DNA from: Candidatus Omnitrophota bacterium
GTDB taxonomy: Bacteria; Ratteibacteria; UBA8468; B48-G9; JAFGKM01
Length of the DNA stretch: 64,000 nt
Direction: 5' to 3'
NCBI GenBank assembly: GCA_023818645.1
Contig: JAMWCJ010000002.1
Coordinates: forward strand, 9,454-73,453
The translations under genes and the position numbers were made by a program. The notes beneath the pieces were generated by a model. It was not told where the DNA came from and made no database searches. It worked only from the letters and a program-made list of their open reading frames with translations. The stretch's first letter is position 1; the number at the start of each line of letters is the position of its first letter. Of this stretch, positions 15,749 through 31,752 are shown piece after piece.

Positions 15749-16618
15749 TTAAATGTCAATATTTATGCAACTTTCTGCAAGATATGAACTTCTATAAAAT
15801 ATGCCGGAAAAGACTTTTCTAAAACCAATTTTTAAACCATAATCCTTAATTTTTAAAAAGAAATCGGTATCATAAAATTTCTTTACTTCATATCCATTTT
15901 TATTTGGTTTTAAATATTGACCAACAACAAGAATATCGCATCCTGTCTTTAAAATATCTTCCATTAATATAAAAATTTCTTCTTCTTTCTCTCCAAGACC
16001 AAGCATAAATCCTGATTTTGTTATAAAACCATATTTTTTAATTTCTGATAATATTTTTAATGATGTGTTATAATCTGACTTTGGTCTTATAATTGGATAT
16101 AAAAATGACACTGTTTCAAGATTATGAGAAATTATATCTGGTTTTGAGTCAAAAATAATTTTTAAGGAATTTAAATTACCATTAAAATCAGGAATAAGTA
16201 GTTCAATTTTTGTTTCTGGAGATTTTTTTCTTATTTCTTCAACAACTTTTTTAAATTGACCTGCGCCTCCATCGGGTAAATCATCTCTCGTTACTGAAGT
16301 TATAACGACATATTTCATTTCAAGTATTTTGACAATTTCAGCAATTCTTTCTGGTTCTTTATTGTCAATAGGTTCAGGAATTGTCTTACTTACCCCACAA
16401 AATTTACAGTTTCTTGTGCAGTTTTTTCCAAGAATCATAAAGGAAGCATACTTTTTCCCAAAACATTCATAAATATTTGGGCAAATGGCATTTTCACATA
16501 CAGTTTGAACATTGTAAGTATTTAAAAGATTTCTTAGATAAATAATATTTTCATTAAGAGAAATTCTTTTTTTTATATATGCAGGAATTTTTCTCATTTT
16601 AAATATATTTTTCAACAA
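15749..16618 (-). CDS. lipA: Lipoyl synthase
   Basis: N-terminal auxiliary-cluster cysteines (CENAICPNIYEC) and a radical-SAM CxxxCxxC-like triad (CTRNCKFC). Matches LipA in length. Confidence 0.88.
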   Translation of the reverse strand: MLKNIFKMRKIPAYIKKRISLNENIIYLRNLLNTYNVQTVCENAICPNIYECFGKKYASFMILGKNCTRNCKFCGVSKTIPEPIDNKEPERIAEIVKILEMKYVVITSVTRDDLPDGGAGQFKKVVEEIRKKSPETKIELLIPDFNGNLNSLKIIFDSKPDIISHNLETVSFLYPIIRPKSDYNTSLKILSEIKKYGFITKSGFMLGLGEKEEEIFILMEDILKTGCDILVVGQYLKPNKNGYEVKKFYDTDFFLKIKDYGLKIGFRKVFSGIFYRSSYLAESCINIDI

Positions 16619-17651
16619 AGTTTAAAAATCTTCTATCTTTTAGATTTTTAGTATCAACTGTACCACAGGAAATTAGGACTTTTCCTGAATAGAAATTTTT
16701 AATAAGTATTTCAAATTGTTCTTTATCAGAAGCATAAATAATTACATTTTTCCCTTTTTTCAATATTTTATCAATTACAGGAAGCCACAAAGATGAAGCA
16801 CAAGGTGGTCTTCCTGCTCCTGGAACTACTTGAATAACTTTGATATATGGCAAAGATAAAAGAATGTCAAGATGTTTTATTTCATCAGGACCATCAAGAT
16901 GCCAGGCAATATATTCAAGATAATCTTTTAGTTTTTCAAGTTCATATACAACAAATTTTTCAAATAATTTAGGAGAAATCATTGTTGAAAAATCAGATTG
17001 ACATGCATAGGTTTTCCCTGGAGCCCACAATAGCCAGCATGCATCACCACTAATTTTTTTAGAATATATAGAATGGAAGAATTTATGTGATTTTATCCAT
17101 GCATCTACAAATTCATCAATCTTTTCAATTATTATTTCAGGGATTTCTATTATATCTATTAATAAATTTTCTACCCCTCTTAAAAGAGAAAAACAGGTTA
17201 AAGCATCTCCAAAATCAGGCATCCATATTAAAAACTCTCCATTATATTTTTCAATCTGTTTTTCAAGAAGTTTTTTACTCGCTCTTACCCAGAAATTATC
17301 CTGCCTGAATTCTATTTTAAATTTTTTCCAGTCATTTATAACTTTTTCAAACCAGACAGTTTCTTTACCAAAGAGCACTTTTCCACCAATATATGCAGTC
17401 ATTGTCATAGGTGTTCCTCTACTTCCCCATAAATGTGGTAAAGATGGATATAAAATTCCGAGATATTCTAATTTTTTTGTATTTTCAATCTGTGCATTTA
17501 CAAATTTTTCAAAATCAGGTAAATTGTTTTCTTCTTTCCAAAAATCATTTAAATTTATAAAATTTCCATCATTAATTTTTGAAATTCCAATTAAAGGACG
17601 ATTAGTTTTTTCATTCCACCAATCTTCAATTTTTTTCAGTTTCTCTACCAT
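16599..17651 (-). CDS. Hypothetical protein, possibly URO-D/MtaA-like TIM-barrel family (weak)
   Basis: 350 aa, cytoplasmic. Carries a C-terminal H-x-DG-x5-h-x2-h segment (HLDGPDEIKHLDILLSLPYIKVIQVVPGAG). This resembles the conserved region of the three clearer URO-D-like paralogs in the window. Low confidence. Confidence 0.3.
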   Translation of the reverse strand: MVEKLKKIEDWWNEKTNRPLIGISKINDGNFINLNDFWKEENNLPDFEKFVNAQIENTKKLEYLGILYPSLPHLWGSRGTPMTMTAYIGGKVLFGKETVWFEKVINDWKKFKIEFRQDNFWVRASKKLLEKQIEKYNGEFLIWMPDFGDALTCFSLLRGVENLLIDIIEIPEIIIEKIDEFVDAWIKSHKFFHSIYSKKISGDACWLLWAPGKTYACQSDFSTMISPKLFEKFVVYELEKLKDYLEYIAWHLDGPDEIKHLDILLSLPYIKVIQVVPGAGRPPCASSLWLPVIDKILKKGKNVIIYASDKEQFEILIKNFYSGKVLISCGTVDTKNLKDRRFLNFVEKYI

Positions 17652-17670
17652 TTTTTCTCCATTTTTAATT

Positions 17671-19842
17671 TTACATTAATTTTAAAATTATATAGGATTT
17701 GCAATCAATAGTTAAATTTAATGTTTCTTTTTCTAACCCAATTTCTTCATCTGTTTCAAAATCTATTATTTTCTCAAATTTGTCTCTAAATTTTATCTCA
17801 CATTCAACGCTTCTATTGAATAGATTGTGTAGAAAAAGGTAAATATTTTTTCCATCTGTTAATGCAGAATGAATTATTAAATTTCTTTTTTCATAGTATT
17901 TTTCAAGGCCTTTTTCTGTCCCTAAGGTATACTCAACTGGTTCTACTTTTATTTCTACAAATGGATTTATATTTTCACTTTTTAATATCTCTAAAATTAA
18001 ACAAATATTTCCTTCTGGTTCATTTAAAGGTTCACTCTGCCCAATTAATCCTCTTAAAAAATAGATTTTACCTTTACCATATTTAATCCTATCAAAAACA
18101 GGCAGACCACAGATTTCAAAAGATTTTCTACTATCATTGTTTAAGAAATATTCATATAAACTTATTTCTTTTGTCTCTAATTTTTCAATTTTTGCACCAA
18201 ATTTAATATTAAGGATATTTTTGAAACCATCAATTTTTTCTCCAGAAGGAGTAGATTCAGGGATAAAAGGGCCTGTAACTAAAATTCCACCATTTTTTAC
18301 AAAATCTATTAATACCTTTTCTGTTGTTTTATCAAGGAATGGACCAGATGGGAAAAATAAAACTTTACAATCTTTAATTTTTTCTGGTGAATCAATTATT
18401 TCAACAATTTTTGGACTGTAACTGGCAAGTAGTAATAATCTAAAAATTCCTTCATATTCCTTAGTTAATAATCCTGCTTTAAGTCCATTTATAACTGGTT
18501 GTCCGACATAAATAGAATTATCATTACAAGGAGAAGGGTCTCCAAGATATGTATGCCAGTGGTAAGGTCTATAATAGACAAGGCCAATTTTATCGTAAAG
18601 GACTTTTAATTCATTCCATTTTTCAAATTTATTTACTATACTTAAAAAATCTTTTATTCCATAATAGACACTTCTTATATTCCCTTTATCGCTTACTGGA
18701 CTTCCACCCCATGTCTCTCTATCATGAAACATAAAATAAAAAATCCCTTTGCATCCATTTGAGATTGCAGATAAACTCATAAATTTGTGATGTTCATAAG
18801 TTAACCAGCACTTTCCTATATCTTCAAACCACCATCCAGACATAAATTCAGCACTCCAAGTAAATTTTAAAACTGACTCAAGATATCTTAAAATCCTTGC
18901 TATTGATACATAACCAGAAAAACTTAAAAATGGGTTTCTGTAAAAATCATATCCGACAATACCCTTAACTGCATCCTCAAATTTTTTAGGGTTTGTTGGA
19001 ACTCCTTCTGGTCTGTGAGGATTTAGATTTGTGTAAAATAAAACTTCTTTTATTCCATTTTTTTCATACATTTCTCTTAACCTTTTTAAATATTCAGCCA
19101 TAACCCATTCTTTAAACTCAATCCAGTCAAAATAATAAATTAAATTTTTTTCAACATCAATTAATTTTCTTGGTGGTTCAATATCCTCAAAATTTTTAAA
19201 ATTATAAAAGGGAACTTTTGGTAAATTTGAAACATCTTTATATTTATTTTTTAAAAATTTATGGTAATAACCTCCTTTACCAACCATACATTCATTGTAA
19301 TCACTATCAAACATAGAATCCATAACTATATAACTTACCTCATTATCAAGATTTATCATTTCAATTGGTCCTCCATTTTTAGATAAATACGGTTTTATAA
19401 TTTCTGAAACAGCAGATATCCAAATTTCACATTCCTTAAGATATTCTGAGTGTAAATATGAAGGTTGAGAACCTTCCTTTTTTGGAATCCAGTAACCCTT
19501 TGTGTGTCTATTTTGATAATCAAGAACAAAAATTTTTGGATTTTCTTTTACTATTCTTTCAGGATAACCTCCATATAAGAATTCATTACATATAAATGGT
19601 CCTGGTCTTATAGCAAGTTTAAGTTTATATTTTTTTATTATTTCAAGAAATTTAACAAGATTTGTTTTCTCTGATTGCCTGCCTTCAAAATCAAAAATAC
19701 CCTTTTTAATTTCATGAAGACCCCATGGAACATATGTAGAAACAAAATTCAAGCCAGATTCTTTCAATCTTTCTACAATTTTCTCCCAATATTTTTCTTT
19801 TAATCGGAAATACTGTATCTCTCCACCAAATATTTTTTCCAT
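17671..19842 (-). CDS. Glycoside hydrolase, GH35-like beta-galactosidase (clan GH-A), cytoplasmic
   Basis: The N-terminal TIM barrel matches GH35 landmarks: GGEIQYFRL…W…GLNFVSTYVPWGLHE…G.FDF…LAIRPGPFICNEF.YGG.P, and GGPIEMINLDNEVSY (acid/base Glu in the NEV block). 723 aa, no signal peptide. Confidence 0.6.
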   Translation of the reverse strand: MEKIFGGEIQYFRLKEKYWEKIVERLKESGLNFVSTYVPWGLHEIKKGIFDFEGRQSEKTNLVKFLEIIKKYKLKLAIRPGPFICNEFLYGGYPERIVKENPKIFVLDYQNRHTKGYWIPKKEGSQPSYLHSEYLKECEIWISAVSEIIKPYLSKNGGPIEMINLDNEVSYIVMDSMFDSDYNECMVGKGGYYHKFLKNKYKDVSNLPKVPFYNFKNFEDIEPPRKLIDVEKNLIYYFDWIEFKEWVMAEYLKRLREMYEKNGIKEVLFYTNLNPHRPEGVPTNPKKFEDAVKGIVGYDFYRNPFLSFSGYVSIARILRYLESVLKFTWSAEFMSGWWFEDIGKCWLTYEHHKFMSLSAISNGCKGIFYFMFHDRETWGGSPVSDKGNIRSVYYGIKDFLSIVNKFEKWNELKVLYDKIGLVYYRPYHWHTYLGDPSPCNDNSIYVGQPVINGLKAGLLTKEYEGIFRLLLLASYSPKIVEIIDSPEKIKDCKVLFFPSGPFLDKTTEKVLIDFVKNGGILVTGPFIPESTPSGEKIDGFKNILNIKFGAKIEKLETKEISLYEYFLNNDSRKSFEICGLPVFDRIKYGKGKIYFLRGLIGQSEPLNEPEGNICLILEILKSENINPFVEIKVEPVEYTLGTEKGLEKYYEKRNLIIHSALTDGKNIYLFLHNLFNRSVECEIKFRDKFEKIIDFETDEEIGLEKETLNLTIDCKSYIILKLM

Positions 19843-19904
19843 TTTTGAGGTATATTATAACATTTTATTCTTGTTTAAAAAATTTGACATGTTAAAATAT
19901 TTGC

Positions 19905-21008
19905 ATGGACAGAAAAGAAAGAGTTATAAGGACATTAAATTTAAAAGAGGTTGATAGGATTCCAATTTATGACCTTGTAAGAAGTGATAAAGTGATTGAA
20001 TATTTTAGCGGTGAGAAGTTGCCTGAATATGAATTTTGGGAGAAGGAAGAAGAGAAATTGAAAATAATGACAGGTAAAGCAGTGAATAAATTATGTGATA
20101 TGACAAGAAGTTTTGGTTTTGGTCCTCTAAAAGAATATGAATGTACAGATGAATTTGGTTTTGTTTGGCATGCAAGTCCTTACGAAAAAACACGATGGAT
20201 TGTTAAAAGACCATTTAATGATGAAGAAGGTGGAATTGAATTTATAAAAAAACTTATAGAAAAATATTGTAAGGAAATAAAAGAAATAAAAGAGAATAGA
20301 AAACAATACAGAGAAAAATATCACAATGGTTTTTTAAAAATACAGTCATATATTGGAAATACGATTAACTTATTAGCTGAAAATGGAACAGGACTTGACT
20401 GTTTAAGGCATTACCTTGGATTTGAACTCTTTACTTATATTTATGCAGATAATCCAGATATAGTAAGTGAGTTTTTTGAAATTTTTACAGAATTGCAGAT
20501 AGAGATTGCAAAAACAGTTGCTGATAAAAATCTTTCTCCCTGTGTTTTAACTTATGGTGACATTGCATGCAAAAATAAACTTTTACATTCACCTGAATTT
20601 TTAAGAAGAGAGTTTTTTCCAAGATTAAAAAGGATTCAAGATACATGGCATAATTATGAAATAAAATGCTTGTTCCATTCAGATGGAAATATTATGGAAG
20701 TTTTGGATGATTTAATTGAAACAGGTATTGATGGACTTAATCCAATTGAAATAGTTGCAGGGATGGATATAAAAAAGATAAAGGAAAAGTACGGAAAAAA
20801 AATTTTTTTAACAGGTGGAATAGATATGAGTCAACTTTTATCTCTAAAAACACCGGAAGAAGTCAAAGAAATTTGTAAAGAAACAATAAAAATAGCATAT
20901 CCTGGATATTTTATTGGTTCAACAACTGAAATTGATAATTCAGTGAAACTTGAAAATGTAATAGCGATGTTTGAAATCGCATCACAGCCTGTTGAAAAAC
21001 TGCTTTAA
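19905..21008 (+). CDS. Uroporphyrinogen-decarboxylase (URO-D)/MtaA-like family protein
   Basis: The N-terminus MDRKERVIRTLNLKEVDRIPIYDL… and the C-terminal HSDGNIMEVLDDLIETGIDGLNPIE block are typical of the URO-D/methylcobamide methyltransferase (MtaA/CmuA) TIM-barrel family. Confidence 0.6.
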   Translation: MDRKERVIRTLNLKEVDRIPIYDLVRSDKVIEYFSGEKLPEYEFWEKEEEKLKIMTGKAVNKLCDMTRSFGFGPLKEYECTDEFGFVWHASPYEKTRWIVKRPFNDEEGGIEFIKKLIEKYCKEIKEIKENRKQYREKYHNGFLKIQSYIGNTINLLAENGTGLDCLRHYLGFELFTYIYADNPDIVSEFFEIFTELQIEIAKTVADKNLSPCVLTYGDIACKNKLLHSPEFLRREFFPRLKRIQDTWHNYEIKCLFHSDGNIMEVLDDLIETGIDGLNPIEIVAGMDIKKIKEKYGKKIFLTGGIDMSQLLSLKTPEEVKEICKETIKIAYPGYFIGSTTEIDNSVKLENVIAMFEIASQPVEKLL

Positions 21009-21017
21009 TTTAAAATT

Positions 21018-22328
21018 TTACTTTTTAGGAGGAAGATGAATGCTTTTTTTATTTAAATCGTTTATTGCTTCCATTATACCTTCTGCAAAGGTTGGATGAC
21101 AGTATAAAATCTTTTCAATTTCTTTTATTTTTATTCCTAACTTTATTGCAAGTGTTCCAAAACTTATAAGTTCAGTTGCTCCTTTTCCTATAATATGCAT
21201 TCCTATTATCTTTTCTGTTTTTTTGTCTGCAATGACTTTGAAAAAACCTTCTGTCTTTTTATCAGCATACGCACGACCAAGAGCAGAGTAGGGGAATTTG
21301 CCTATTTCTATTTCAATTCCTTTTTCTTTTGCAGTTTGTTCAGTAAGACCACATACGCCAATTTCTGGGTCTGTAAATATAACTTCTGGAATTGAATCAT
21401 AATCTATAATTTCGTCTTTTCCACATATATTTTCAGCAGCAATTTCACCTTCTTTTGTTGCAACATAAGCAAGTTGATATTTTCCATTTACATCTCCGAC
21501 TGCATAGATTTTCTCTATATTTGTTTTTAATCTTTCATCTGTTTTAATCCCTTTTTTATCATATTCTAATCCCTCTAATTTTAGTATATTCGGTATTCTT
21601 CCAACAGAAACAAATATTTTTTCTGCTTCTATCATTTCACAACTTTCAAGTTTTATATTTAAATTTACTTCAATTCCTCTTTTTTCAAATGATTTTTTAA
21701 GCAATTCAGTTATCTCTTTATCTTTTCCAGGTAAAAGTGAATCCATCATTTCATATATCTTTACTTTAACTCCAAACTTATTTAAAATTGAAGCAAATTC
21801 ACAACCAATAAATCCTCCTCCAATTATGGCAATACTTTCTGGAAGTTTTTGTAATTCCCATAAATGGTCAGAGATTATAATTCTTTTGTCATTTTTAAAA
21901 CATTCAGGAATATAACAAGATGAACCAGTAGCAATCACAATATATTCAGTAGTATAGAAATTCCCATTAACTTCAACAGTTCTTAAATCTTTAAATATTG
22001 CTTTTCCTTTTATAAGATCAACTTTATAACTTTTAAGAAGCATATTTATACCAGTTCTTAATCTTAAAACAACATCATTTAAAACCTCATTTAATATCTT
22101 ATTCCAGTCATAATTAACTTTTTTTTCAATTGAATTGTATTTTGAATTAGAAATTTCTTCTGAAATTGAATAAAGTGCTTTTGTTGGAATACATCCTCTA
22201 TTTAAACATACACCACCAAGAGCAAGTTCTTCAATTAAAAGGACTTTTTTTCCATATTGAGAACATCTAATAGCACATGGATATCCAGCAGGTCCTCCAC
22301 CAATAACAATCACATCATATTTTCCCAT
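21018..22328 (-). CDS. lpdA: Dihydrolipoyl dehydrogenase (E3)
   Basis: FAD-binding GGGPAGY, redox-active disulfide GGVCLNRGCIPTK, NAD-binding GGGFIGCEF and a C-terminal dimerisation domain (…HPTFAEGI…). Confidence 0.85.
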   Translation of the reverse strand: MGKYDVIVIGGGPAGYPCAIRCSQYGKKVLLIEELALGGVCLNRGCIPTKALYSISEEISNSKYNSIEKKVNYDWNKILNEVLNDVVLRLRTGINMLLKSYKVDLIKGKAIFKDLRTVEVNGNFYTTEYIVIATGSSCYIPECFKNDKRIIISDHLWELQKLPESIAIIGGGFIGCEFASILNKFGVKVKIYEMMDSLLPGKDKEITELLKKSFEKRGIEVNLNIKLESCEMIEAEKIFVSVGRIPNILKLEGLEYDKKGIKTDERLKTNIEKIYAVGDVNGKYQLAYVATKEGEIAAENICGKDEIIDYDSIPEVIFTDPEIGVCGLTEQTAKEKGIEIEIGKFPYSALGRAYADKKTEGFFKVIADKKTEKIIGMHIIGKGATELISFGTLAIKLGIKIKEIEKILYCHPTFAEGIMEAINDLNKKSIHLPPKK

Positions 22329-22330
22329 AT

Positions 22331-22882
22331 TTACTCCTTTTTAACTATAAATTCTGCTGCTTCTTTTAAATTTTTAAATATATAATCAGGTTTTATCTCC
22401 CATTTTTCTATTTCTTTTTTTGATTTTGTCTTTCCAGTTAAGACAAGTATTGTTTTTGCTCCTATATTTTCTCCTGCAATAATATCTATATCACTATCAC
22501 CAATAAAATATGTCTTTGAAAAATCAATTTTTCCAAAATCCTCTTCTACTTTTTTAAATAAACCTGTCTTTGGTTTTCTACATTCGCAATTTTCTTCCTT
22601 TGTATGTATGCAATAGTAAACTTTTAAAATATTATTTATATTTTTCTTTTTAAGTTCTTCAAGCATTTTTTGAGTTATCTCATTTAAATCATTTATAGTA
22701 AAAAGTCCTTTATTAACACCTGCCTGATTTGAAATTATTATAACTTTATAACCAGCATCATTTAAAATTTTCAATCCATCAATCCCTTTGGGTATAAACT
22801 TAAATTCTTCCCATTTTTTTATATAATCATCTGGTGTAAAAATTGAAATAACTCCATCCCTGTCAAGAAAAATTAGTTTCAT
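22331..22882 (-). CDS. gmhB: D,D-heptose 1,7-bisphosphate phosphatase-like HAD hydrolase
   Basis: HAD motif I LDRDGVI, a Zn-binding CxH/CxC region (C.HTKEENCECRKPKTGL) and motif IV GDSDIDIIAG. Confidence 0.7.
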   Translation of the reverse strand: MKLIFLDRDGVISIFTPDDYIKKWEEFKFIPKGIDGLKILNDAGYKVIIISNQAGVNKGLFTINDLNEITQKMLEELKKKNINNILKVYYCIHTKEENCECRKPKTGLFKKVEEDFGKIDFSKTYFIGDSDIDIIAGENIGAKTILVLTGKTKSKKEIEKWEIKPDYIFKNLKEAAEFIVKKE

Positions 22883-22894
22883 ATTTTTAAAAAA

Positions 22895-23926
22895 TTAGAA
22901 AATAAAAGGGGCTGTTTCTCTAAAACCAAAGATTATATTCATATTCTGAACTGCTTGACCACTTGCTCCTTTAACAAGATTATCTATTGCAGAAGTTATC
23001 ACAATATTTTTTCCTTCAATAAGTTTAATCCCAATATCACAGAAATTTGTATCATAAACATTTTTTGTTGATGCACTTATTCCATAATCCATAATTCTAA
23101 TAAAGGGCTCATTTTTATAAAACTCAATATATAAGTTCTGTATATCTTCTGGATTCATTTTTTCTTTTAATTCTACATAAATAGTTGATAGAATTCCTTG
23201 ATTATATGGTGCAAGATGTGGAACAAAAATAACTTTATAATTTTTATCTCCAAACTCATTTAAAATTTCTTCAATTTCTGGTTGATGTCTATGTTCACCT
23301 ATTTTATATGCTTTTATATTTTCATTACATTCAACAAAAATATTAGAAGTGGAAGGAGATTTTCCTGCTCCAGATACACCACTTACACTATTGGCAATAA
23401 TCTTATTGCTTATTAAATTATTTTTAACAAGAGGTAAAACACCAAGAATTATACTTGTAGGATAACAACCAGGATTTGCAACAAGTTTTGCGTTTTTAAT
23501 CTTTTCTCTATTCATTTCAGGAAGTCCATAAACCGCTTCTTTTAAAATTTCAGGATTTTTATGTTTTGTATACCATTTTTCATAAATTTCTACATTTTTA
23601 AATCTATAATCAGCACTTAAATCAATTACAATTTTCCCAAGTTTTAAAATTTCAGGAACAAAATTCATAGAGACAATATGTGGAAGGGCAAGGAAAACAC
23701 AGTCACAGTTTTTTTCAATTCTTTCCCAATCAGGCGAATTTTTACATTTTAAATTTATTCTTTTTTTAAACTTTGGATTAATTTCTTCTAAATATGGTGT
23801 TCCTTCATCAGGTGCAACATAACATTCTATAATCTCAACAGATGTATGATTTAATAAAATTTCTACAAGTTTCTGTCCAGCATAACCACTTGCTCCAAAT
23901 ATTCCAACTTTTATCTTTTGGTCCAC
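22895..23926 (-). CDS. argC: N-acetyl-gamma-glutamyl-phosphate reductase
   Basis: N-terminal NAD(P)-binding VGIFGASGYAGQKLVEIL and a catalytic-Cys region (…ANPGCYPTS…), typical of ArgC. Confidence 0.88.
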   Translation of the reverse strand: MDQKIKVGIFGASGYAGQKLVEILLNHTSVEIIECYVAPDEGTPYLEEINPKFKKRINLKCKNSPDWERIEKNCDCVFLALPHIVSMNFVPEILKLGKIVIDLSADYRFKNVEIYEKWYTKHKNPEILKEAVYGLPEMNREKIKNAKLVANPGCYPTSIILGVLPLVKNNLISNKIIANSVSGVSGAGKSPSTSNIFVECNENIKAYKIGEHRHQPEIEEILNEFGDKNYKVIFVPHLAPYNQGILSTIYVELKEKMNPEDIQNLYIEFYKNEPFIRIMDYGISASTKNVYDTNFCDIGIKLIEGKNIVITSAIDNLVKGASGQAVQNMNIIFGFRETAPFIF

Positions 23927-24306
23927 TGGAATTTCTTTCTTGCACCTTTCTGTCCGTATTTTTTTCTTTCTTTCATTCTTGGATCTCTTGTAAGGAGTCC
24001 ATATTCTTTTAATTTTGGTGTTAAAGATGGATCATATTTTACTAATGCTCTTGCTATCCCAAGTTTTATAGCATCAACCTGACCAGTTATTCCGCCTCCC
24101 TGTGTTTTAATCTCAAAATCAAATTTTCCTTTTAAATCAGTAACGATTAGTGGTTTTATTGCATTTTCTTGTTGATAAAAAAGAGGGAAATATTGTTCTA
24201 ATGTTTTTTTATTAACTAAAATTTTCCCTTCACCTTCTTTCATCTTCACTATAGCAACACTTTTTTTTCTCCTTCCTACACCAATAATTAATTGATTATT
24301 TCCCAT
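23911..24306 (-). CDS. rpsI: 30S ribosomal protein S9
   Basis: 131 aa with the conserved C-terminus …LLTRDPRMKERKKYGQKGARKKFQWTKR and the internal GGGITGQVDAIKLGIARAL block. No rplM is adjacent. Confidence 0.9.
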   Translation of the reverse strand: MGNNQLIIGVGRRKKSVAIVKMKEGEGKILVNKKTLEQYFPLFYQQENAIKPLIVTDLKGKFDFEIKTQGGGITGQVDAIKLGIARALVKYDPSLTPKLKEYGLLTRDPRMKERKKYGQKGARKKFQWTKR

Positions 24307-24339
24307 ATCTCTTCCTCTCCTTTTTAATAAATTTAAATT

Positions 24340-25869
24340 TTACAAAATTTTTGCTAATGTGTCAAATGAATTTTTAAGTTTAAAATAGAGTTCTCTGTAA
24401 ATTTTGTAAAATTTTTCGTACTCAGTAAACCTTTCTTTGTCAAATTTAAAACTATCCTTTTCTTTAAGTATTACTTTACATGCAGTTTTTACATCTTTAT
24501 ATATTCCAACACCTACACTTGCTAAAATCGCTGCTCCAAAAGGTGCTCCTTCCTGACATTCCAATCTTATAATATTTTTACCAAATATATCTGCCATCAT
24601 CTGACACCATAAACTACTTTTTCCACCACCTCCACTTGCAATAAAATTTTCTCCAATAGGTAAATTTATTTCATTCATTATTTTAATGCTATCTTTTAGT
24701 CCAAAAGTTATTCCTTCCATTACACTTCTAATTAAATTAATTTTTGTATGTTTTAGAGATAGACCAAAGAATACACCTCTTGCATTAGGATCTGGATATG
24801 GACATCTTTCTCCTGTAAGATATGGTAAAAAAATAAGGCCTTCGGAACCAACTGGAATATCTTTTGCTTTTTCAGTCATTATTTCATATGGATCTATCTT
24901 TTTTCTTTTTCCCTCTTTTTTCTCTTCTTCACATAAATTATCTCTTAACCATCTGAAAGAACCACCTGCAGAAAGCATAACTCCCATTAAATGCCATTTA
25001 CCTGGAACAGCATGACAGAAAGTATGAAGTCGTCCCTTTGGATCAACAATTACTTTTTCAGAATGTGCAAAAACAACTCCACTTGTTCCAATCGTTACAG
25101 AAACTTTTCCTTCTTCAACTATTCCATTTCCAACTCCACCACTTGCCTGGTCCCCTCCTCCTGCAACAACAGGCGTTTTTTCAGATAGACCTGTAATTTT
25201 AGCAATATCTTTTTTAATATATCCTGTAATTTCAGTTCCTTCATATACTTTTGGTAATAAATCAATCTCTAAATTTAATTTTTCAAGTATTTCGTTAGAC
25301 CATTTCCTATTTTTAACATCAAAAAGTGAAGTTCCAGAAGCATCAGAAACATCAGTTGCAAAGTCACCTGTTAAACAATATCTTATATAATCTTTTGGAA
25401 GTAAGATTTTTCTTACATTCTTATATATATCAGGTTGATTTTTTCTTAACCATAATATTTTTGGTGCTTGAAAACCAGTCAAAACTGGATTACATGTTAT
25501 TTCAAAGATTCTATCCTGTCCAACAATTTCATTTATTTCTTCGCATTCTTTTGCTGTCCTCTGGTCACACCATAAGATTGCTGGATAAATCACATTATAA
25601 TTTGAGTCGAGAAAAACAGAACCATGCATCTGGCCTGTCAAACCAATTCCTTTAATCTCTTCTCCTTTTATTCCTGTTTTTTTAAGAATTTTTTTAATAC
25701 ATTTGATAGTTGCATCCCACCAATCATTTGGATTTTGTTCAGCCCAACCAGGTTTAGGAGTTATTAATGGATATTCAACTGTATTTGTTCCTATAACTTT
25801 TCCATCTCTATCAATAATTACTATTTTTACTCCAGTAGTTCCAACATCTATTCCCATTAAGTATTCCAT
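24340..25869 (-). CDS. xylB: FGGY-family carbohydrate kinase, xylulokinase-like
   Basis: N-terminal actin-like ATPase motif MGIDVGTTGVKIVIID…, a central GTSGV… block and C-terminal GGG..S..W.Q..AD. About 500 aa, typical of XylB. Confidence 0.7.
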   Translation of the reverse strand: MEYLMGIDVGTTGVKIVIIDRDGKVIGTNTVEYPLITPKPGWAEQNPNDWWDATIKCIKKILKKTGIKGEEIKGIGLTGQMHGSVFLDSNYNVIYPAILWCDQRTAKECEEINEIVGQDRIFEITCNPVLTGFQAPKILWLRKNQPDIYKNVRKILLPKDYIRYCLTGDFATDVSDASGTSLFDVKNRKWSNEILEKLNLEIDLLPKVYEGTEITGYIKKDIAKITGLSEKTPVVAGGGDQASGGVGNGIVEEGKVSVTIGTSGVVFAHSEKVIVDPKGRLHTFCHAVPGKWHLMGVMLSAGGSFRWLRDNLCEEEKKEGKRKKIDPYEIMTEKAKDIPVGSEGLIFLPYLTGERCPYPDPNARGVFFGLSLKHTKINLIRSVMEGITFGLKDSIKIMNEINLPIGENFIASGGGGKSSLWCQMMADIFGKNIIRLECQEGAPFGAAILASVGVGIYKDVKTACKVILKEKDSFKFDKERFTEYEKFYKIYRELYFKLKNSFDTLAKIL

Positions 25870-25985
25870 TTAAACCTCCTTTGGAACTTCTCCTCTTTCT
25901 TCTTTTCCAATTAGAATGAGACCAGGATAAGATAAAAATGGGATTCTATCAACTTTCAACCTATTAAAAACTCTTTCTTTAAGAT

Positions 25986-27104
25986 TCATTTGACTTCTAT
26001 TTCTGGAGGATATAAAAAATTTAAATATTTCTCATTAACTTTTGCCTGTTCACAGTTTCCTGAATGTATATAAATTCTATAAAAGAGTTTTAGTTCATTT
26101 CCATAGGGTAAAATATAAGTTCCTGAAATTTTTTTATCTCCATAAAAATCAGAAAGACCAAAAAAGTTTGCACTAAAAAGTCCATAATCTCTTACATGCC
26201 AATAAGTTGGATACCTTAAATTACCAGGAAAATCAAAAACTGAAATTCCACATTCAATCCCTTCTATTTGACCTGAATAATCACACCAAAATGCTCTTTT
26301 ACCCCAACATTCTTTTTCACCTTCACCACCATAACTATTTTTTATTAATCCAGTATTTCTTCCTTCCATCTCAGGATTTACCCTTATACTCAATAATCCA
26401 CTTTCTTTTGTATCTTTAAATATAACTTCTGTTTCAGTCGCTCTTAAAATAATTGTATGGTCTATTATTCTATTATCAGATGGTAAATTATATATTTTTA
26501 TTATTCTTTCTTCTTCAAGCAATTTTCTTCCTTTATTATCTATCCAATCATTTAAAGAGTGAATTAAACCAAAGACCGGCCCACTTATAAGATTAATAAA
26601 TCTTCTATGTATAGTTTTTCCATGTCCTTCAAGTTCAGACCAATTATCTGTTCCATTTACATCTCCATGAGCAACCCAAATTCCTCTGTGATGGATATGG
26701 TCAAATTTTTCAGGATTTCCTGGACTTGCAGATTTCCTTACGATTGATTTACCAGAAGGTCCAATTACTGGATTTAAAAATGGACGGGAATATTCTAAAG
26801 AATAATTATAAGTTGTAAAAAGTGTCTCATTTATAAAAACATCAACTTTCCCATTTTTATCATCAACAACTTTTACTATTTCTGGGGAAGATTCACTTTT
26901 TTCAATTTTAAATTCTATTTCTTCACCTTTTCCAATCTCACCGGCTAAAAATATTAGGTATTTTTTTCCGTCTTCGTATTCTTTCTGGGTATAAAGTTCT
27001 TTATTTGAAAACTTCAAAATTATATTCTCTTCATCAAATTCAACTCTAATAGGGAAATTATACCATTTCCTTATTACACTATTCTTTAAAATAATTTTTT
27101 CCAT
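25986..27104 (-). CDS. Hypothetical protein, possibly PmoA-like (DUF6807) family
   Basis: 372 aa, no signal peptide. It is immediately upstream of a Gfo/Idh/MocA oxidoreductase in the same orientation, a pairing known for DUF6807 proteins. Family assignment is inference only. Confidence 0.25.
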   Translation of the reverse strand: MEKIILKNSVIRKWYNFPIRVEFDEENIILKFSNKELYTQKEYEDGKKYLIFLAGEIGKGEEIEFKIEKSESSPEIVKVVDDKNGKVDVFINETLFTTYNYSLEYSRPFLNPVIGPSGKSIVRKSASPGNPEKFDHIHHRGIWVAHGDVNGTDNWSELEGHGKTIHRRFINLISGPVFGLIHSLNDWIDNKGRKLLEEERIIKIYNLPSDNRIIDHTIILRATETEVIFKDTKESGLLSIRVNPEMEGRNTGLIKNSYGGEGEKECWGKRAFWCDYSGQIEGIECGISVFDFPGNLRYPTYWHVRDYGLFSANFFGLSDFYGDKKISGTYILPYGNELKLFYRIYIHSGNCEQAKVNEKYLNFLYPPEIEVK

Positions 27105-27121
27105 ATTTTTCCTCCTCTTTT

Positions 27122-28159
27122 TTAAATACCATCAATTTGATAACATTTTTCAATTACCCACATGACCCTTCTTACACTTTCAGGTGTAATTTTTAGTGGT
27201 TTATTATTTTTAATTGTATCGTAAAGATCTTTATAAAAATTTTTTTCATATTCTTTATCAGTTTCAGATAATTCCCAAATTTGCTCTTCTTTCCATGGTA
27301 TATCTTCTCTATTATAACTTCTGTCAGGAGTTGGTTGTTCTTCAATTTTTCGCGGTGGTAAATCAGACGGATTAAAAAATTTCCAGATTAATCTATTTGA
27401 AGTTCCTTTTATTCCTCCGTTTGTTCCCATAACAAGCCAATTTTCCTGTGGATAGCAACAGCAAAGAGTTATTTCAATATCAATTGTTGGTGAATTTTTA
27501 CCTTTTAAAATTATTTTTACATGGTCTTCTGTATCACCAAGAGTTAATGTTTTTTCCATCTGACAGAATATTTCAGGTTCTTCTTTATCTCCAAAAAGTT
27601 GTAATGCTTGGTCAATTAAATGTGGTCCCCAATTGTTCAATAAGCCGCCGCCATATTTTTTTAATGTCTGCCAGTCCCACCTTCTTCCAAAACCATGTTG
27701 ATACATTTTTATAAGAACGACTTTTCCAATTATTCCTGATTCAATAATTTCTTTTACTTTTAAAAAATCAGGAGAATATCTTCTATTTTGAAAAATTGTT
27801 AAAATTTTATTTTCTTCTTTTGCTACTTTTATCATTTGGTCAGCATCTTTTAGATTTGTTGCCATTGGTTTTTCACAGACAACATTTTTACCACTTTTCA
27901 GTGCTTTAATTGTGTGCTCAGCATGAAGAAAAGAAAAAGTTGATATTACAACAAGTTCAATATCTTCGTCTTTTAAAAATTCATCATAATCTGTATAAAC
28001 TTTACAACTGAAAGTTTCCTCTGCTTCTTTAATCCGTTTTTCATCTTTATCACAGACAGATACAATTTGATAAAGTTCTGGTAATTGAGAAATAGTTTTA
28101 CAATGAATATTCCAGCCACTTCTACCAAGTCCTGCAACTCCAACCTTAATTTTATCCAT
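27122..28159 (-). CDS. Gfo/Idh/MocA family NAD(P)-dependent oxidoreductase
   Basis: N-terminal Rossmann motif KVGVAGLGRSGWNIH… and the EKP motif (VVCEKPMA) conserved in Gfo/Idh/MocA dehydrogenases. Confidence 0.8.
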   Translation of the reverse strand: MDKIKVGVAGLGRSGWNIHCKTISQLPELYQIVSVCDKDEKRIKEAEETFSCKVYTDYDEFLKDEDIELVVISTFSFLHAEHTIKALKSGKNVVCEKPMATNLKDADQMIKVAKEENKILTIFQNRRYSPDFLKVKEIIESGIIGKVVLIKMYQHGFGRRWDWQTLKKYGGGLLNNWGPHLIDQALQLFGDKEEPEIFCQMEKTLTLGDTEDHVKIILKGKNSPTIDIEITLCCCYPQENWLVMGTNGGIKGTSNRLIWKFFNPSDLPPRKIEEQPTPDRSYNREDIPWKEEQIWELSETDKEYEKNFYKDLYDTIKNNKPLKITPESVRRVMWVIEKCYQIDGI

Positions 28160-28224
28160 TTTTTCTCCTCCTTTTTAATAAAATAATACAATTTTGTCTG
28201 AATAACAAATTTTTATTTTTTCTC

Positions 28225-29310
28225 CTATTTCATTCCATATATTTCTTTTAATATTCTAATATAGTATTTATAATTTTCCAATGAGATATCAGATGAAACA
28301 GAATGGTCAATTTTTGGTATATAGCCTCCTTCTTCAATAACACCTATCTTTTTATGAATTTCCTTTTTTATATTTTCTTTCCCTTTTGCAACCTCTCTTT
28401 TATCAATCCCACCTATCATTTTTACCCTTTTTCCATACCTTTTTCTTAAATTAACAGGGTCCATATCTGCTGCAACTTCACAAGGTAAAAACCCATCTAT
28501 TCCACATTCAAAATATAATTCCATAAAAGGATTTAAGTTCCCATCACTATCATATATGGTTATATTTACACCAAATTTTTTTGCAAAATCACATACTTTT
28601 TTATATCTTGGGAAAAGAAAATTTTTAAACATAGTAGGTGAAATTAAAGTTGATGTTTTAAAAGCAATATCTTCTCCAAAACCAAGATAATCAATTTCAA
28701 CCTCAGGTAAGATTTTTTTCAACCCTTCCATACATATCAAATTTATTCTTTCAAAGAGTTCATCAACAAGTTCAGGTGCATCATAGAATAGATAAGAAGA
28801 ATATTCTACTCCTGCTAAATTCCTTAAAATCCAATAATAACACCCACCATCAAGAAATAATATATAATCCCTTTTTTCATTTTTCCATTTATTTATTTTT
28901 TCATTAATATCAATAGGCCATCTTTCTTTAATTAATGATAAATCAAATTTTTCTTTTATTATTCTTTCAAGGTCTTTTTTGTTTTTAACAGGAAACTCAA
29001 TCCATTCTGGCATACTTGTTGAATTTTTAAAATCTCTTACTTTTCTTCCGTATCTATCAATTTTTACAATTTCATTCTCATTTTCAAAAATAACTTTTTC
29101 TTCAAATGGTGGATATAGATTTGTATTAAGACCAGCATAAACAAATTTTAATTCTTCAATTTCAAAATATTCATAAAGTGAAACATTTTCAGGGAGACCT
29201 TCTTTATACCATCTTTTTAATGTATCATGCCATGGCCCATCTAATAGTATTGGAGGATGGTCAATTTTTTCAAATTTAAGCGTCTTTTTAAACCTTTCAT
29301 AATTAGTCAT
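28225..29310 (-). CDS. URO-D/MtaA-like family protein
   Basis: The N-terminus MTNYERFKKTLKFEKIDHPPILL… and the C-terminal block DSDGNLNPFMELYFECGIDGFLPCE are parallel to the 19905-21008 paralog. Confidence 0.55.
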   Translation of the reverse strand: MTNYERFKKTLKFEKIDHPPILLDGPWHDTLKRWYKEGLPENVSLYEYFEIEELKFVYAGLNTNLYPPFEEKVIFENENEIVKIDRYGRKVRDFKNSTSMPEWIEFPVKNKKDLERIIKEKFDLSLIKERWPIDINEKINKWKNEKRDYILFLDGGCYYWILRNLAGVEYSSYLFYDAPELVDELFERINLICMEGLKKILPEVEIDYLGFGEDIAFKTSTLISPTMFKNFLFPRYKKVCDFAKKFGVNITIYDSDGNLNPFMELYFECGIDGFLPCEVAADMDPVNLRKRYGKRVKMIGGIDKREVAKGKENIKKEIHKKIGVIEEGGYIPKIDHSVSSDISLENYKYYIRILKEIYGMK

Positions 29311-29313
29311 ACC

Positions 29314-31752
29314 CTATATTTTAATCAAAAATGTTTTTATTTCAAATGGTTTAATTTTAATATTATTTAATTCAACTTCATTTATTATATTTTCCATTAA
29401 ATCTGTTTCATAAATATTTTTAAATTTAAAATTCATTTTAATACTTAATTTTTTTTCTTTACCTTCACTTTCAAAAATTCTCATTATATATCCACTTTTA
29501 TTTTCTGCCATTTTAAAAGCAGATAAAACAATTCCTTCTGTATCTATAGAAATAAATGATTTTTCAACATTCTCATCACTCTTTACTATAAAAGAAAAAA
29601 CAGGATTTATAAAATTGTAAGATAACTTAATAACTTCATCAATTTTTTCTGGTTTTAATGGAAGTATTAAAAATTCATAATAATGTGTACCATTATCATA
29701 ACTACCAATATCTGGAATAAAACCACTTGCTTTTTCTGTTGGACTTCTTAATAAAGAAATAATTATTTTCCCATTATTTAATTGTTGACCAGGAGTTCCT
29801 TTATTGCTAACTGCTAAACCAATTTTTTCATCATAATAATATACCCAGTTTAAACATGGCCAGTCACCTTTTGAAGTAGAAAGAATATTTTTTGGGAAGT
29901 TTGCCATATTTTCTTTGTATTTAAATTCAACTTCAAAATAAGGTTTCCTTTCAATATATCCAAATGGTATTTCATAAATTGCCTTCGCTTTGTTAGGATT
30001 GATTTTTGTAGGAATAGATAAAAATATCTTTGTATTTTTACCTTTCCAATTTAATTTTAATTTCAAAATAATATATTTTAGTTCATTAAAAATAAAAATT
30101 TCTTTATTCCAAGTTAATTTCTCAAATCCATCCCATAACTGATAATGTTCAAAGCCAGTTTCTATTTCTTTTACCTCCCCTTCTATTTTTATATTAGTAA
30201 AAACATCTCCTTCTATAATATATCTAATTCTTTCTTCTTCAAATTCTCTACCCATTATAAGTCCATAGAAATCTTCTGTCCATAATGTTCCTCTATCTTC
30301 TCTAAAAACAATTTCAAATATATTTTTATCAAAAACATTTTCTTTTAAAAATTTTGGTATTATTTTTAATTCATTATCATTCACGCTTATTTTATAATTA
30401 TCATTTTCAAATTTATATTTTTCAATCTCTTTTTCTTTATTTATAACCTTTTCTTTTTCCTTTTTCCTTTCTTTGAAATTTAAAAACTTATATCCAAAAG
30501 AAGGAACATTTGCAATGAAAAAAGTACCATTGTCATAGTTCTGTGTTTTTATTTTCCTCCCTCCATCAAATATCTCAATATCATTTTTACCTTCAAGAAA
30601 AACAATATCTTTTCTTTTCCATGGATTTGTATTTAAAAGCATTATTTTACTTTTAGTTCCTCTTGAAACAACTTTTGATATACAATAATAAATTTTGGAA
30701 TATGCCTTTTTTATTATCTCTGTAAATTCATTCAACATATCAGTATATACATCATCAATATGACAACCACATATTCCATCATGAAATTGACATATCGCAA
30801 TTTTCTCCCATAAGTTATTAAAAAATTCATTGTCATAATCCATATTTGAAACAATATTGGCTATTGAATTTATTTTTTCACAATTTGTAAGTATATTTTC
30901 TGCCTTTCTATTTAATCTTTTTATTTCTATTCTTGTGGTATAACAACCAGTAAATTCAGGGTTAAATTCTCCTTTATATATAGGTAAATTTCCCTCTTTA
31001 ATTGTCTGATAATAATCAATTGGCTGCCTTATTTTTATTTCTTTAAAACTTTTAATTTTTGAAAATATTTTTTCATCAAAAAATCCTTCTTCAGTAGCAT
31101 AAAGAGCAAATATATTTTCTTTATCCTGATTTAAAATTTCAATTATAGAATTTTCCATTCTTTCTTCAGGTGAATATATTATAGGAAGATTACAAAGATG
31201 GGTATTGGTTGTAATCTCTCCGGTTGCGAAAGATGTTATAATCCTACTTCCATCAATTCCTTCCCATAAAAAATCACTACCAAATTTTTCAGGAAGTCCA
31301 GGTATTCTACCAGGGAATAAATATTTAAAATTTGATTTTTTTAGAATCTGAGGAATTTGTCCACTCATACCAAATGCATCCATAAACCAAGCAATTTCAA
31401 TGTCAACATTAAAATTTTCTTTATAATATTTTCTCCCTAAATAAATGTTTCTAACGATTGATTCACCACTAACTAAATTAGTATCAGGAATACTTACTAT
31501 TCCACCTACAAAATAAATCTTTTTCCCTTTTACAAGTTTTTCTATCTCTCTCTTATACTCTGGATTTTCTTTTAAAAATGTCTTTATTATATCTGATTGC
31601 GCAAAGCAGAATCTAAATTCAGGATATTTTCTAAAAAGATTTAAATTATATAAAATTTGCTCTTGTCTGACTTTATTATAACCTTCCTTTGTTCTTCTCC
31701 ATATTAAATCAGAATGATGATGAAAACAAAGAAATATTTTTTTATTTTCCAT
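29314..31752 (-). CDS. Glycoside hydrolase family 38-like alpha-mannosidase, cytoplasmic
   Basis: The N-terminal GH38 catalytic-domain landmarks are CFHHHSDLIW (H-x-H-x-D…W) and AWFMDAFGMSGQIPQIL (compare W.IDPFGHS..P.LL). 812 aa, no signal peptide. Confidence 0.7.
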   Translation of the reverse strand: MENKKIFLCFHHHSDLIWRRTKEGYNKVRQEQILYNLNLFRKYPEFRFCFAQSDIIKTFLKENPEYKREIEKLVKGKKIYFVGGIVSIPDTNLVSGESIVRNIYLGRKYYKENFNVDIEIAWFMDAFGMSGQIPQILKKSNFKYLFPGRIPGLPEKFGSDFLWEGIDGSRIITSFATGEITTNTHLCNLPIIYSPEERMENSIIEILNQDKENIFALYATEEGFFDEKIFSKIKSFKEIKIRQPIDYYQTIKEGNLPIYKGEFNPEFTGCYTTRIEIKRLNRKAENILTNCEKINSIANIVSNMDYDNEFFNNLWEKIAICQFHDGICGCHIDDVYTDMLNEFTEIIKKAYSKIYYCISKVVSRGTKSKIMLLNTNPWKRKDIVFLEGKNDIEIFDGGRKIKTQNYDNGTFFIANVPSFGYKFLNFKERKKEKEKVINKEKEIEKYKFENDNYKISVNDNELKIIPKFLKENVFDKNIFEIVFREDRGTLWTEDFYGLIMGREFEEERIRYIIEGDVFTNIKIEGEVKEIETGFEHYQLWDGFEKLTWNKEIFIFNELKYIILKLKLNWKGKNTKIFLSIPTKINPNKAKAIYEIPFGYIERKPYFEVEFKYKENMANFPKNILSTSKGDWPCLNWVYYYDEKIGLAVSNKGTPGQQLNNGKIIISLLRSPTEKASGFIPDIGSYDNGTHYYEFLILPLKPEKIDEVIKLSYNFINPVFSFIVKSDENVEKSFISIDTEGIVLSAFKMAENKSGYIMRIFESEGKEKKLSIKMNFKFKNIYETDLMENIINEVELNNIKIKPFEIKTFLIKI

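Follow-up and report, generated by a model that had tools for sequence, protein, structure and literature searches.

Why would a bacterium keep four relatives of uroporphyrinogen decarboxylase (URO-D, the HemE enzyme) and of the methyltransferase MtaA in between its genes for the degradation of glycans? This question is raised by a stretch of 64,000 nucleotides of a Candidatus Omnitrophota bacterium (contig JAMWCJ010000002.1, positions 9,454 to 73,453 of the forward strand), hereafter called the window. A preliminary description of the window reported four URO-D/MtaA-like open reading frames (ORFs), here given the working names U1 to U4, next to glycosidases and other sugar genes in a glycan island, and put forward O-demethylation of imported sugars, or another decarboxylation or methyl-transfer step, as their possible role. 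The window has a GC content of about 28%, U2 is 100% identical to an NCBI protein from a 'Candidatus Omnitrophica bacterium' metagenome-assembled genome (MAG), and the nearest relatives of U1 and of U3 carry the name Candidatus Ratteibacteria.

Algal, plant and microbial polysaccharides commonly contain O-methylated sugars, such as 6-O-methyl-galactose, 4-O-methyl-glucuronate, 2-O-methyl-fucose and 2-O-methyl-xylose, which block ordinary sugar catabolism. By a computational analysis of the window and of orthologous loci, we found U1 to U4 to be divergent paralogues in a large unnamed branch of the UroD/MtaA/MetE superfamily of triosephosphate isomerase (TIM) barrels, a branch that lives in cytoplasmic glycan-catabolic loci of the Planctomycetes-Verrucomicrobia-Chlamydiae (PVC) group, Armatimonadota, Omnitrophota/Ratteibacteria and similar lineages. 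The reading that we prefer, at a rough probability of 0.4, is that sugars are O-demethylated by methyl transfer, either with a corrinoid protein whose gene lies in trans or, conceivably, with direct transfer of the methyl group to folate.

Results

Four mutually homologous TIM barrels

U1 (16599-17651, minus strand, 350 amino acids), U2 (19905-21008, plus strand, 367 amino acids), U3 (28225-29310, minus strand, 361 amino acids) and U4 (57955-58938, minus strand, 327 amino acids) are all present exactly where the preliminary description had placed them, and they are real, mutually homologous UroD/MtaA-fold TIM barrels. Three of them score above the gathering cut-off of 23.9 bits of the Pfam URO-D family (PF01208), namely U2 with 56.2 bits (E 3.9e-15), U3 with 48.8 bits (E 6.8e-13) and U4, a member of a rare clade, with 33.9 bits (E 2.3e-8); in U2 and U3 the model covers the C-terminal half alone and leaves the N-terminal half unmatched. 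The very divergent U1 has no Pfam match at all and fails the URO-D cut-off by itself, so its earlier assignment to these barrels cannot have rested on ordinary sequence hallmarks, though it was correct. In pairwise BLASTP the only recognisable relationship is that between U2 and U3, which share 31% identity over 199 residues.

The relationship of all four emerged from profile-profile comparison (hhalign) between family alignments built from database homologues. The U2 and U3 families align over their full length with a probability of 99.8%, the U4 and U1 families over 271 columns with 98.8% (E 4.3e-17), and U4 matches U3 and U2 with 98.2% and 97.2%, respectively. The U4-family profile also recovers U1 (E 2.9e-7), U2 and U3 from the ORFs of the window and as such links the four paralogues, and no fifth copy was found among these ORFs with it. 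AlphaFold (AF2) models of U3 and U1, with confidence scores (pLDDT) of 96.8 and 97.5, are both predicted to form a UroD/MtaA-type (beta/alpha)8 barrel. For both, the best match in the PDB is 4ay7, the Methanosarcina MtaA structure. In a Foldseek search with the U3 model it is found at 4.4e-12, ahead of UROD (1e-11) and MetE, and with the U1 model at 1.9e-8 (template modelling (TM) score 0.62), with UROD next and MetE later.

Each of the four proteins belongs to an unnamed family whose members occur in glycan loci of PVC bacteria, Armatimonadota and Omnitrophota, and the families of U1 to U3 are sizeable. In a clustered protein database we counted 875 homologues of U2, which keep 55-60% identity from Ratteibacteria to Armatimonadota, 477 of U3 and 253 of U1, none of the latter with a Pfam domain. 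The U4 family is rare, with 165 representatives at E<=1e-3 and 8 at E<=1e-30, and its closest relative to U4 sits on short contigs of which the contexts are uninformative. Sequence and family-profile searches of PDB chains returned no solved structure in any of the four families and nothing nearer than MtaA and UROD: with family profiles U1 and U2 gave no match and U3 gave marginal MtaA/UROD matches, and the best sequence match of U2 is MtaA. A tblastn search against plasmids yielded two unannotated Subdoligranulum records and nothing else.

Loss of the HemE and MtaA signatures

At the position of the H-x-C zinc ligands of MtaA, U1 carries HLD (H251-L-D253-G), U2 HSD (F-H258-S-D260-G), U3 DSD (D254-S-D256-G) and U4 HSE (H223-S-E225, plus H231). 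H-x-C occurs nowhere in the four proteins and the conserved Cys partner is missing as well. Compared with MtaA and MtbA (4ay7; TIGR01463, NF040654, NF041608), the proteins have the same barrel and carry the metal-binding dyad at the same position, whereas the H-x-C...C zinc ligands have given way to H-x-D, D-x-D or H-x-E and both the coenzyme M context and the adjacent corrinoid protein are lacking. An identity as MtaA-type zinc-thiol methyltransferase was rejected because H-x-C is replaced by [H/D]-x-[D/E]. The best NCBIfam matches of U2, U3 and U4 are nonetheless MtaA/CmuA/MtbA models, at 59.5, 34.7 and 18.9 bits (U1 has none), far under the cut-offs of these methyltransferase II (MT II) models, which are 235 bits for TIGR01463, 400 for NF040654 and 600 for NF041608. 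By sequence and structure, the proteins are nearer to the MtaA/CmuA methyltransferase branch than to HemE.

The dyad is part of a larger conserved constellation. In the U1 family W100, W209, D220, H251 and D253 are invariant; in the U3 family the same holds for D254, D256, E278, D303-K304-R305 and D335-H336, with E213-D214 nearly so, and the invariant set of the U2 family is equivalent to that of U3. An invariant Asp ahead of an 'xxSP' turn is common to all four proteins. In the model of U3 the conserved polar residues are predicted to lie at the C-terminal ends of the barrel strands, and together they look like a catalytic site with a hard-ligand metal centre.

The N-terminal signature of HemE, PxWxMRQAGR, holds its substrate-binding arginines. 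A regular-expression search found neither this signature nor any RQAGR in the four proteins, and against the hemE equivalog model (TIGR01464, cut-off 302.95 bits) U3 scores 17.1 bits and U1, U2 and U4 are unreported. No other haem or tetrapyrrole genes are present among the window ORFs of at least 150 amino acids. The U proteins do have the fold in common with HemE (TM 0.5-0.63), as well as the C-terminal His and the Asp before the 'SP' turn, yet they differ from it in lacking the Arg-rich N-terminal signature and in occurring as multiple divergent copies in sugar loci without haem context. With no signature, 17 bits against 303 and no haem genes around, the HemE identity was rejected, and the view of the preliminary description that these are not haem enzymes holds. 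MetE belongs to the same superfamily and appears lower in the fold-search lists; according to the titles of its PDB entries it is a barrel to which both a folate methyl donor and a zinc bind, and it differs from the U proteins in being much larger, with two barrels, and in having no sequence-level match to them. Its zinc site for homocysteine consists of His/Cys/Glu/Cys.

Sugar genes around the paralogues in the window

U3 lies 3 nt downstream of a gene for a GH38 glycoside hydrolase of the alpha-mannosidase family (29314-31752, minus strand, four GH38 Pfam domains). It is directly followed by a gene for a Gfo/Idh/MocA NAD-dependent sugar dehydrogenase assigned by Pfam (27122-28159, minus strand), whose nearest NCBIfam models, below their cut-offs, are sugar 3-dehydrogenases and inositol dehydrogenase. 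Next come a gene for a DUF6807 protein (25986-27104, minus strand, PF14100 at 1.6e-63) and the xylulokinase gene xylB (24340-25869, minus strand, TIGR01312 591 bits against a cut-off of 380). The order is therefore GH38, U3, Gfo/Idh/MocA, DUF6807, xylulokinase, and xylB closes the co-directional run that holds U3. The DUF6807 and Gfo/Idh/MocA genes between U3 and xylB (25986-28159) form a trio that is also seen in the Ratteibacteria relatives L002, L011 and L019 (L-numbers are locus labels). In the closest of these, L011 (JBKBIN010000001.1), an additional gene at 13262-14329, between DUF6807 and xylB, weakly matches the U3 and U4 profiles (18-19 bits); it is not in the window, so the paralogue set varies among close relatives.

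U1 starts 19 nt downstream of a gene for a GH35-like exo-glycosidase (17671-19842, minus strand; Pfam GH35 9.9e-36, also GH42 and GLMA_2nd), of which the N-terminal part resembles exo-beta-D-glucosaminidase (NCBIfam exo_beta_glucsam 4.3e-52, below cut-off), and U2 is divergent from that same gene at a distance of 62 nt. At its 3' end U1 overlaps the annotated TTG start of the lipoyl synthase gene lipA by 20 nt (16599-16618), so lipA may be co-transcribed with the GH35-like gene and U1, or may start further downstream. U4 is found 13 nt downstream of a gene for an AP_endonuc_2 xylose-isomerase-like TIM barrel (58952-59785, minus strand, Pfam 1.2e-40), which is nearest to ketose 3-epimerases (NCBIfam IolO 7.1e-43 and psicose 3-epimerase 2.3e-26, both below cut-off). 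Read directly, the translations of U1 to U4 and of the neighbouring sugar enzymes, including the GH35-like and GH38 proteins, have no N-terminal signal-like segment.

The neighbours named in the preliminary description are thereby borne out and in part specified: the GH35- and GH38-like enzymes are cytoplasmic by this reading of their N-termini, its FGGY kinase is a xylulokinase and its 'sugar-phosphate isomerase' is the AP_endonuc_2 barrel. Its glycan island stands as far as glycosidases and sugar genes lie beside the paralogues, but the region of U1 and U2 (15749-24306) is not purely glycan, since lipA, lpd, gmhB, argC and rpsI, all of them housekeeping genes, occur in between. Proximity alone is therefore weak proof in this genome, and comparative context is needed.

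U3 stands at the end of a 33-kb co-directional glycan-type array that runs from 57563 down to 24340. Within the long co-directional part at 31742-57563 (minus strand), DUF1559/N-methyl pseudopilin-like genes are found at 40556-41323, 51303-52073 and 56772-57563, each preceding large proteins with little or no Pfam signal. These large proteins include one of 1328 amino acids without a domain, a GH42-like one of 1266 amino acids, one with LamG and DUF1080 (3-keto-disaccharide-hydrolase-like) domains and one of 1189 amino acids; carbohydrate-binding module (CBM) domains occur among them as well. The array also encodes GATase1_like proteins (31742-33667 and 36075-37874) and a GntR/periplasmic-binding-type regulator (45249-46319). 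An Rfam scan of the window returned two tRNAs only, at 8717-8790 (plus strand) and 15650-15721 (minus strand), and no riboswitch.

Sugar genes recur around orthologues in other phyla

We compared 80 genomic loci of U3 orthologues with 80 metagenomic loci of U2 orthologues, clustered their ORFs and annotated the recurrent clusters. The U3 loci derive from Omnitrophota, Verrucomicrobiota, Planctomycetota, Lentisphaerota/Victivallales, Kiritimatiellia and Armatimonadota, and from WS1, Elusimicrobia, Spirochaetes, Chloroflexi and Sumerlaeota. The neighbours that recur are consistently sugar genes. The commonest direct neighbour of U3 orthologues is GH4, an NAD/Mn-dependent glycosidase, which immediately adjoins them in 10-11 loci of 5 lineage groups; such adjacency is seen across several phyla in L027, L030, L033, L038, L039, L042, L043, L048, L049, L062 and L073. 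A Gfo/Idh/MocA gene is present in 14 of the 80 U3 loci, UxaC lies directly downstream of U3 orthologues in 3 lineage groups and XylB does so in L016, L018 and L063. Two of these latter loci (L016, 90-4291, and L018, 2352-6510) continue as U3, XylB, FchA (FTCD_C cyclodeaminase-like) and FolD, which places one-carbon tetrahydrofolate enzymes directly behind the sugar kinase. Mannitol-dehydrogenase-like, sulfatase, GH2, GH29, GH95, GH35-like and GH38 genes are likewise recurrent near U3.

Near U2, the recurrent genes are heparinase II/III-like, DUF4838, GLMA-like and GH2 genes, and a Fucose_iso_C isomerase-like gene lies directly downstream of U2 in its closest relatives. In another genome a class II aldolase gene is divergent from the U2 homologue, in a neighbourhood with sugar ABC transporter genes, two Gfo/Idh/MocA genes and an AP_endonuc_2 gene. 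Among U1 homologues, one follows an Opp-type transporter and GH4, another accompanies a GH42/35 gene ahead of a Fucose_iso_C gene and a third has an AraC regulator as its partner. A compact module of a different kind occurs in L138 (8835-13787), L098 and L104, where a 325-amino-acid protein, U2, an MttB-like gene and a convergent U3-like gene sit inside a type I restriction system, with the HsdM/HsdS genes on one side and the HsdR gene on the other. The 325-amino-acid protein has no Pfam family and is possibly a beta-propeller, judging from its sequence only; as the product of the gene upstream of U2 it was considered as a novel corrinoid carrier or a hidden paralogue, and it matches neither.

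Most informative is L089, a locus of a Lentisphaeria MAG, in which six URO-D-like genes are found and both pairs of the window, GH38 followed by U3 and GH35-like followed by a U1-like gene, are repeated. About 25 of the 80 U3 loci hold further URO-D-like paralogues besides the U3 orthologue, and the presence of four URO-D-like genes within some 55 genes in the window is not a matter of chance. On a 502-kb contig of JGI metagenome 3300072015, about 10 URO-D-family genes stand in tandem in 17 kb, adjoining a DegT aminotransferase and an FGE-sulfatase/DinB protein, with no corrinoid protein within the 21 kb shown. Judged by analogy, such arrays (about 10 in tandem in the JGI contig, six in L089) resemble expansions of substrate-specific methyltransferase I (MT I) genes.

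Across these contexts the U genes recur after an exo-glycosidase and before the first canonical isomerase or kinase of a monosaccharide pathway, which suggests a step that turns the released sugar 'canonical'. With both glycosidase pairs repeated elsewhere and U3 orthologues adjoining GH4, UxaC, XylB and Gfo/Idh/MocA genes, the link to imported sugars made in the preliminary description has gained in strength.

Corrinoid genes beside the orthologues

In the Victivallaceae locus L054, an MtaC/MtgC-type corrinoid protein gene ends 14 nt before a true U3 orthologue. The corrinoid protein carries a GDLHDIGKN motif, with MtgC and 'methyltransferase cognate corrinoid protein' as best NCBIfam matches, and the orthologue is 46% identical to U3 and keeps YDSDG, PCE, GGIDKR and IDHS. 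The pair is flanked by a divergent AraC regulator and a convergent GH29 fucosidase. Secondly, in Caldicellulosiruptoraceae bacterium PP1 (L008, 1-9100) a U1-family member that keeps the invariant residues of its family is the last gene of a methyltransferase cluster, MtaC-CobW-URO-D-MtaC-MtaB-URO-D(HxC)-U1-like, and is followed by LacI and PfkB sugar kinase genes. This is a methanol-type corrinoid methyltransferase cluster in a non-methanogen, and its first URO-D has 455 amino acids and a thioredoxin-like tail. Thirdly, MttB-family genes flank U2 orthologues in two lineages, in which the MttB-like proteins are about 24% identical to each other; to our knowledge, all characterised MttB-family members are corrinoid-dependent MT I enzymes. 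These three links to corrinoid systems are independent. Genomes contain few corrinoid-system genes, and by a rough estimate such genes beside members of three of the four families are unlikely to arise by chance without a functional link.

In about 12 loci (L030, L042, L055, L056, L099, L116, L145, L149, L165, L093/L094, L013 and L089), Cys-type (H-x-C) URO-D paralogues are located at most 2 genes from a carboxylate-type (H-x-D or D-x-D) gene. This suggests a two-protein partnership; a Cys-type copy is absent from the window. Only 2 of the approximately 30 H-x-C-type paralogues in these loci adjoin a corrinoid protein gene, so the corrinoid genes may be in trans, or none of these enzymes uses one.

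Discussion

Proposed sugar O-demethylation by methyl transfer

In the mechanism that we propose, of which the substrate class, the metal, the involvement of a corrinoid and the destination of the methyl group are all inferred, each paralogue would be a sugar-specific tailoring enzyme acting on the sugar released or exposed by its partner exo-glycosidase. The tailoring step would be the removal of an O-methyl ether, ahead of the canonical isomerase or kinase step. The [H/D]-x-[D/E] dyad and the other Asp and His residues at the mouth of the barrel would hold a divalent metal at the place where MtaA binds zinc via H-x-C, and the role of this metal would be to polarise the oxygen of the ether. 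In an MT I-type reaction, a corrinoid protein whose gene lies at another site in the genome would then accept the methyl group on its cob(I)amide, from which the group would be handed to tetrahydrofolate.

The known MT I enzymes offer the closest precedent. MtvB, OdmB, VdmB and MtoB, which belong to O-demethylases, and CdmB, which acts on chloromethane, are UroD-superfamily barrels like the U families, and they are substrate-specific components with many paralogues that take a methyl group from an ether or a halide (PMC13222342; PMC8630106). CdmB is zinc-free, and neither it nor the Moorella enzyme needs a zinc-thiolate site (PMC13222342; PMC8630106), just as U1 to U4 are without H-x-C; the missing MtaA zinc motif and Cys ligands are hence no obstacle to an MT I role. 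A further likeness is that rare U-family members adjoin MtaC-type corrinoid proteins. On the other hand, the known MT I enzymes act on aryl methyl ethers or halomethanes and are clustered with a corrinoid protein, an MT II and an activase (PMC8630106, PMC13222342), whereas the U families are surrounded by cytoplasmic glycosidases and sugar kinases or isomerases and corrinoid proteins are scarce around them.

This scarcity is the main argument against corrinoid-dependent methyl transfer, and together with the following observations it weighs on the reading that we prefer. The 64-kb window holds no corrinoid protein by an MtaC-type search, and no MtaB/MttB, methylcorrinoid:tetrahydrofolate methyltransferase or reductive activase. 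Within about 10 kb of the orthologues, the MtaC-type search detected corrinoid proteins in 2 of the 80 U3 loci, and a hidden Markov model (HMM) built from four such proteins detected none in the 80 U2 loci, which leaves 158 of the 160 orthologue loci without one; the U1-family contexts L007, L174/L175, L176 and L178 have none either, and no methylcorrinoid:tetrahydrofolate methyltransferase or activase was seen in any Pfam-annotated context. Known MT I genes would be expected to have cognate corrinoid genes close by more often than is seen here, and adjacency below 2% would be very unusual for MT I enzymes. Furthermore, the U1-family member of L008 could owe its place in the cluster to an old tandem duplication among URO-D paralogues, the neighbourhoods of the orthologues are very heterogeneous, with singletons for most neighbour clusters, and the many invariant carboxylates, together with Lys, Arg and His, would suit other sugar chemistries just as well. 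Finally, the literature searched contained no case of an alkyl (sugar) methyl ether being demethylated by methyl transfer. The interpretation in the preliminary description is supported in part, namely in the exclusion of haem synthesis and in the link to sugars, and O-demethylation would be its more tentative component.

A possible sugar conversion without a corrinoid

Nearly as likely as O-demethylation is that the U proteins are corrinoid-independent, metal-dependent sugar-converting enzymes that pass no methyl group to cobalt. In place of zinc-thiolate, an Asp/Asp/His (or His/Asp) site would then bind a hard divalent cation, and the enzymes would convert a monosaccharide or keto-sugar by acid/base chemistry. 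The reaction might be epimerisation, beta-elimination of a substituent, or decarboxylation of a beta-keto uronate that the neighbouring NAD-dependent dehydrogenase or GH4 has produced. Such a role would account for the absence of corrinoid proteins from the window and from nearly all orthologue loci, and it is in line with the invariant acidic, Lys, Arg and His set of U3 at the strand ends of its model and its equivalent in U2. It also agrees with the commonest neighbours of U3 being NAD-dependent sugar oxidoreductases (Gfo/Idh/MocA in 14 loci, GH4 in 10-11) and with the recurrence of the hexuronate and pentulose genes UxaC, mannitol-dehydrogenase-like and XylB. The founding member of the UroD superfamily is a cofactor-free decarboxylase, and the set of an FGGY kinase, an AP_endonuc_2 epimerase, a class II aldolase and a TIM-barrel decarboxylase recalls the L-ascorbate/L-gulonate (Ula/Yia) pathway.

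Conversely, a corrinoid-free enzyme leaves the operon-like pair of corrinoid protein and U3 orthologue in L054 unexplained, as well as the U1 homologue in the MtaC-MtaB cluster and the MttB-like genes beside U2, and we found no superfamily member with such an activity. The simplest conversion, an aldose-ketose isomerisation, to which the location of U3 before XylB and its D-x-D motif had pointed, is judged unlikely since dedicated isomerase genes (UxaC, Fucose_iso_C-like) adjoin the U genes.

Unlikely alternatives: methyl transfer from other substrates, and haem synthesis

It is improbable that the U proteins are corrinoid-dependent methyltransferases with a non-sugar substrate, for instance methylamines, methylated thiols or the methanol that pectin and other methyl esters release, or that they act as an MT II component, in which case their place among sugar genes would reflect co-regulation or a loose gene order. 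In favour of this, L008 holds MtaB, the methanol MT I, MttB-like genes flank U2 orthologues, characterised MttB-family members use methylamines or quaternary amines, and the housekeeping genes interleaved with U1 and U2 show that the gene order here is loose. A coincidental position is hard to reconcile with the tight spacing to the glycosidases (3 nt between GH38 and U3, 19 nt between the GH35-like gene and U1), with the repetition of both pairs in another phylum and with the recurrence of orthologues directly before UxaC, XylB and fucose-isomerase-like genes, and the thiol-activating H-x-C...C zinc site expected of an MtaA-type MT II is missing.

Genuine uroporphyrinogen decarboxylases for tetrapyrrole synthesis are refuted for practical purposes: three of the four proteins do pass PF01208, UROD structures come a close second in the fold searches and the conserved C-terminal His of HemE has H336 as its aligned counterpart in U3, but against this stand the absent RQAGR signature and the negligible hemE scores, a Pfam model that matches just the C-terminal half of U2 and U3, four copies without other haem genes in 64 kb and relatives in tandem arrays of up to about 10.

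Conclusions

The U families form a distinct, sizeable, sugar-associated radiation of a known fold, of which the chemistry is predicted. In the literature searched, we found no mention of URO-D-like genes in glycan loci and nothing on corrinoid-dependent or other anaerobic demethylation of sugars; the sole sugar demethylase found there is a P450 (PMC6292453). This P450 O-demethylase for 6-O-methyl-D-galactose is oxygen-dependent and yields formaldehyde (PMC6292453, PMC9400963). It is a possible functional analogue, as it removes a methyl ether that blocks catabolism and is encoded with glycan-degrading genes, although its fold is unrelated to that of the U proteins and nothing of the kind is present in the window.

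If sugar O-demethylation by methyl transfer is right, then U1 to U4 might be the first known methyl-transfer sugar O-demethylases, a proposal that we make tentatively and at less than even odds: a widespread and paralogue-rich family, each member paired with a particular exo-glycosidase, with as acceptor either a shared corrinoid protein in trans or tetrahydrofolate directly, in the way that MetE uses folate. Possible substrates would be methyl-mannose, methyl-fucose, 4-O-methyl-glucuronate and methyl-xylose. The two-gene unit of L054, a corrinoid protein with a U3 orthologue beside a fucosidase, provides a concrete experimental entry point.

In major glycan degraders that have yet to be cultured, these families go systematically with cytoplasmic glycosidases, and so far they carry no specific name. 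Should they turn out to perform a metal-dependent sugar conversion, this would be new chemistry for the UroD fold. Methyl-ether cleavage, if true, would supply a step now missing from the carbon cycle, carry corrinoid methyl-transfer chemistry over from aromatic ethers to carbohydrates and explain how complex methylated glycans are catabolised without O2.

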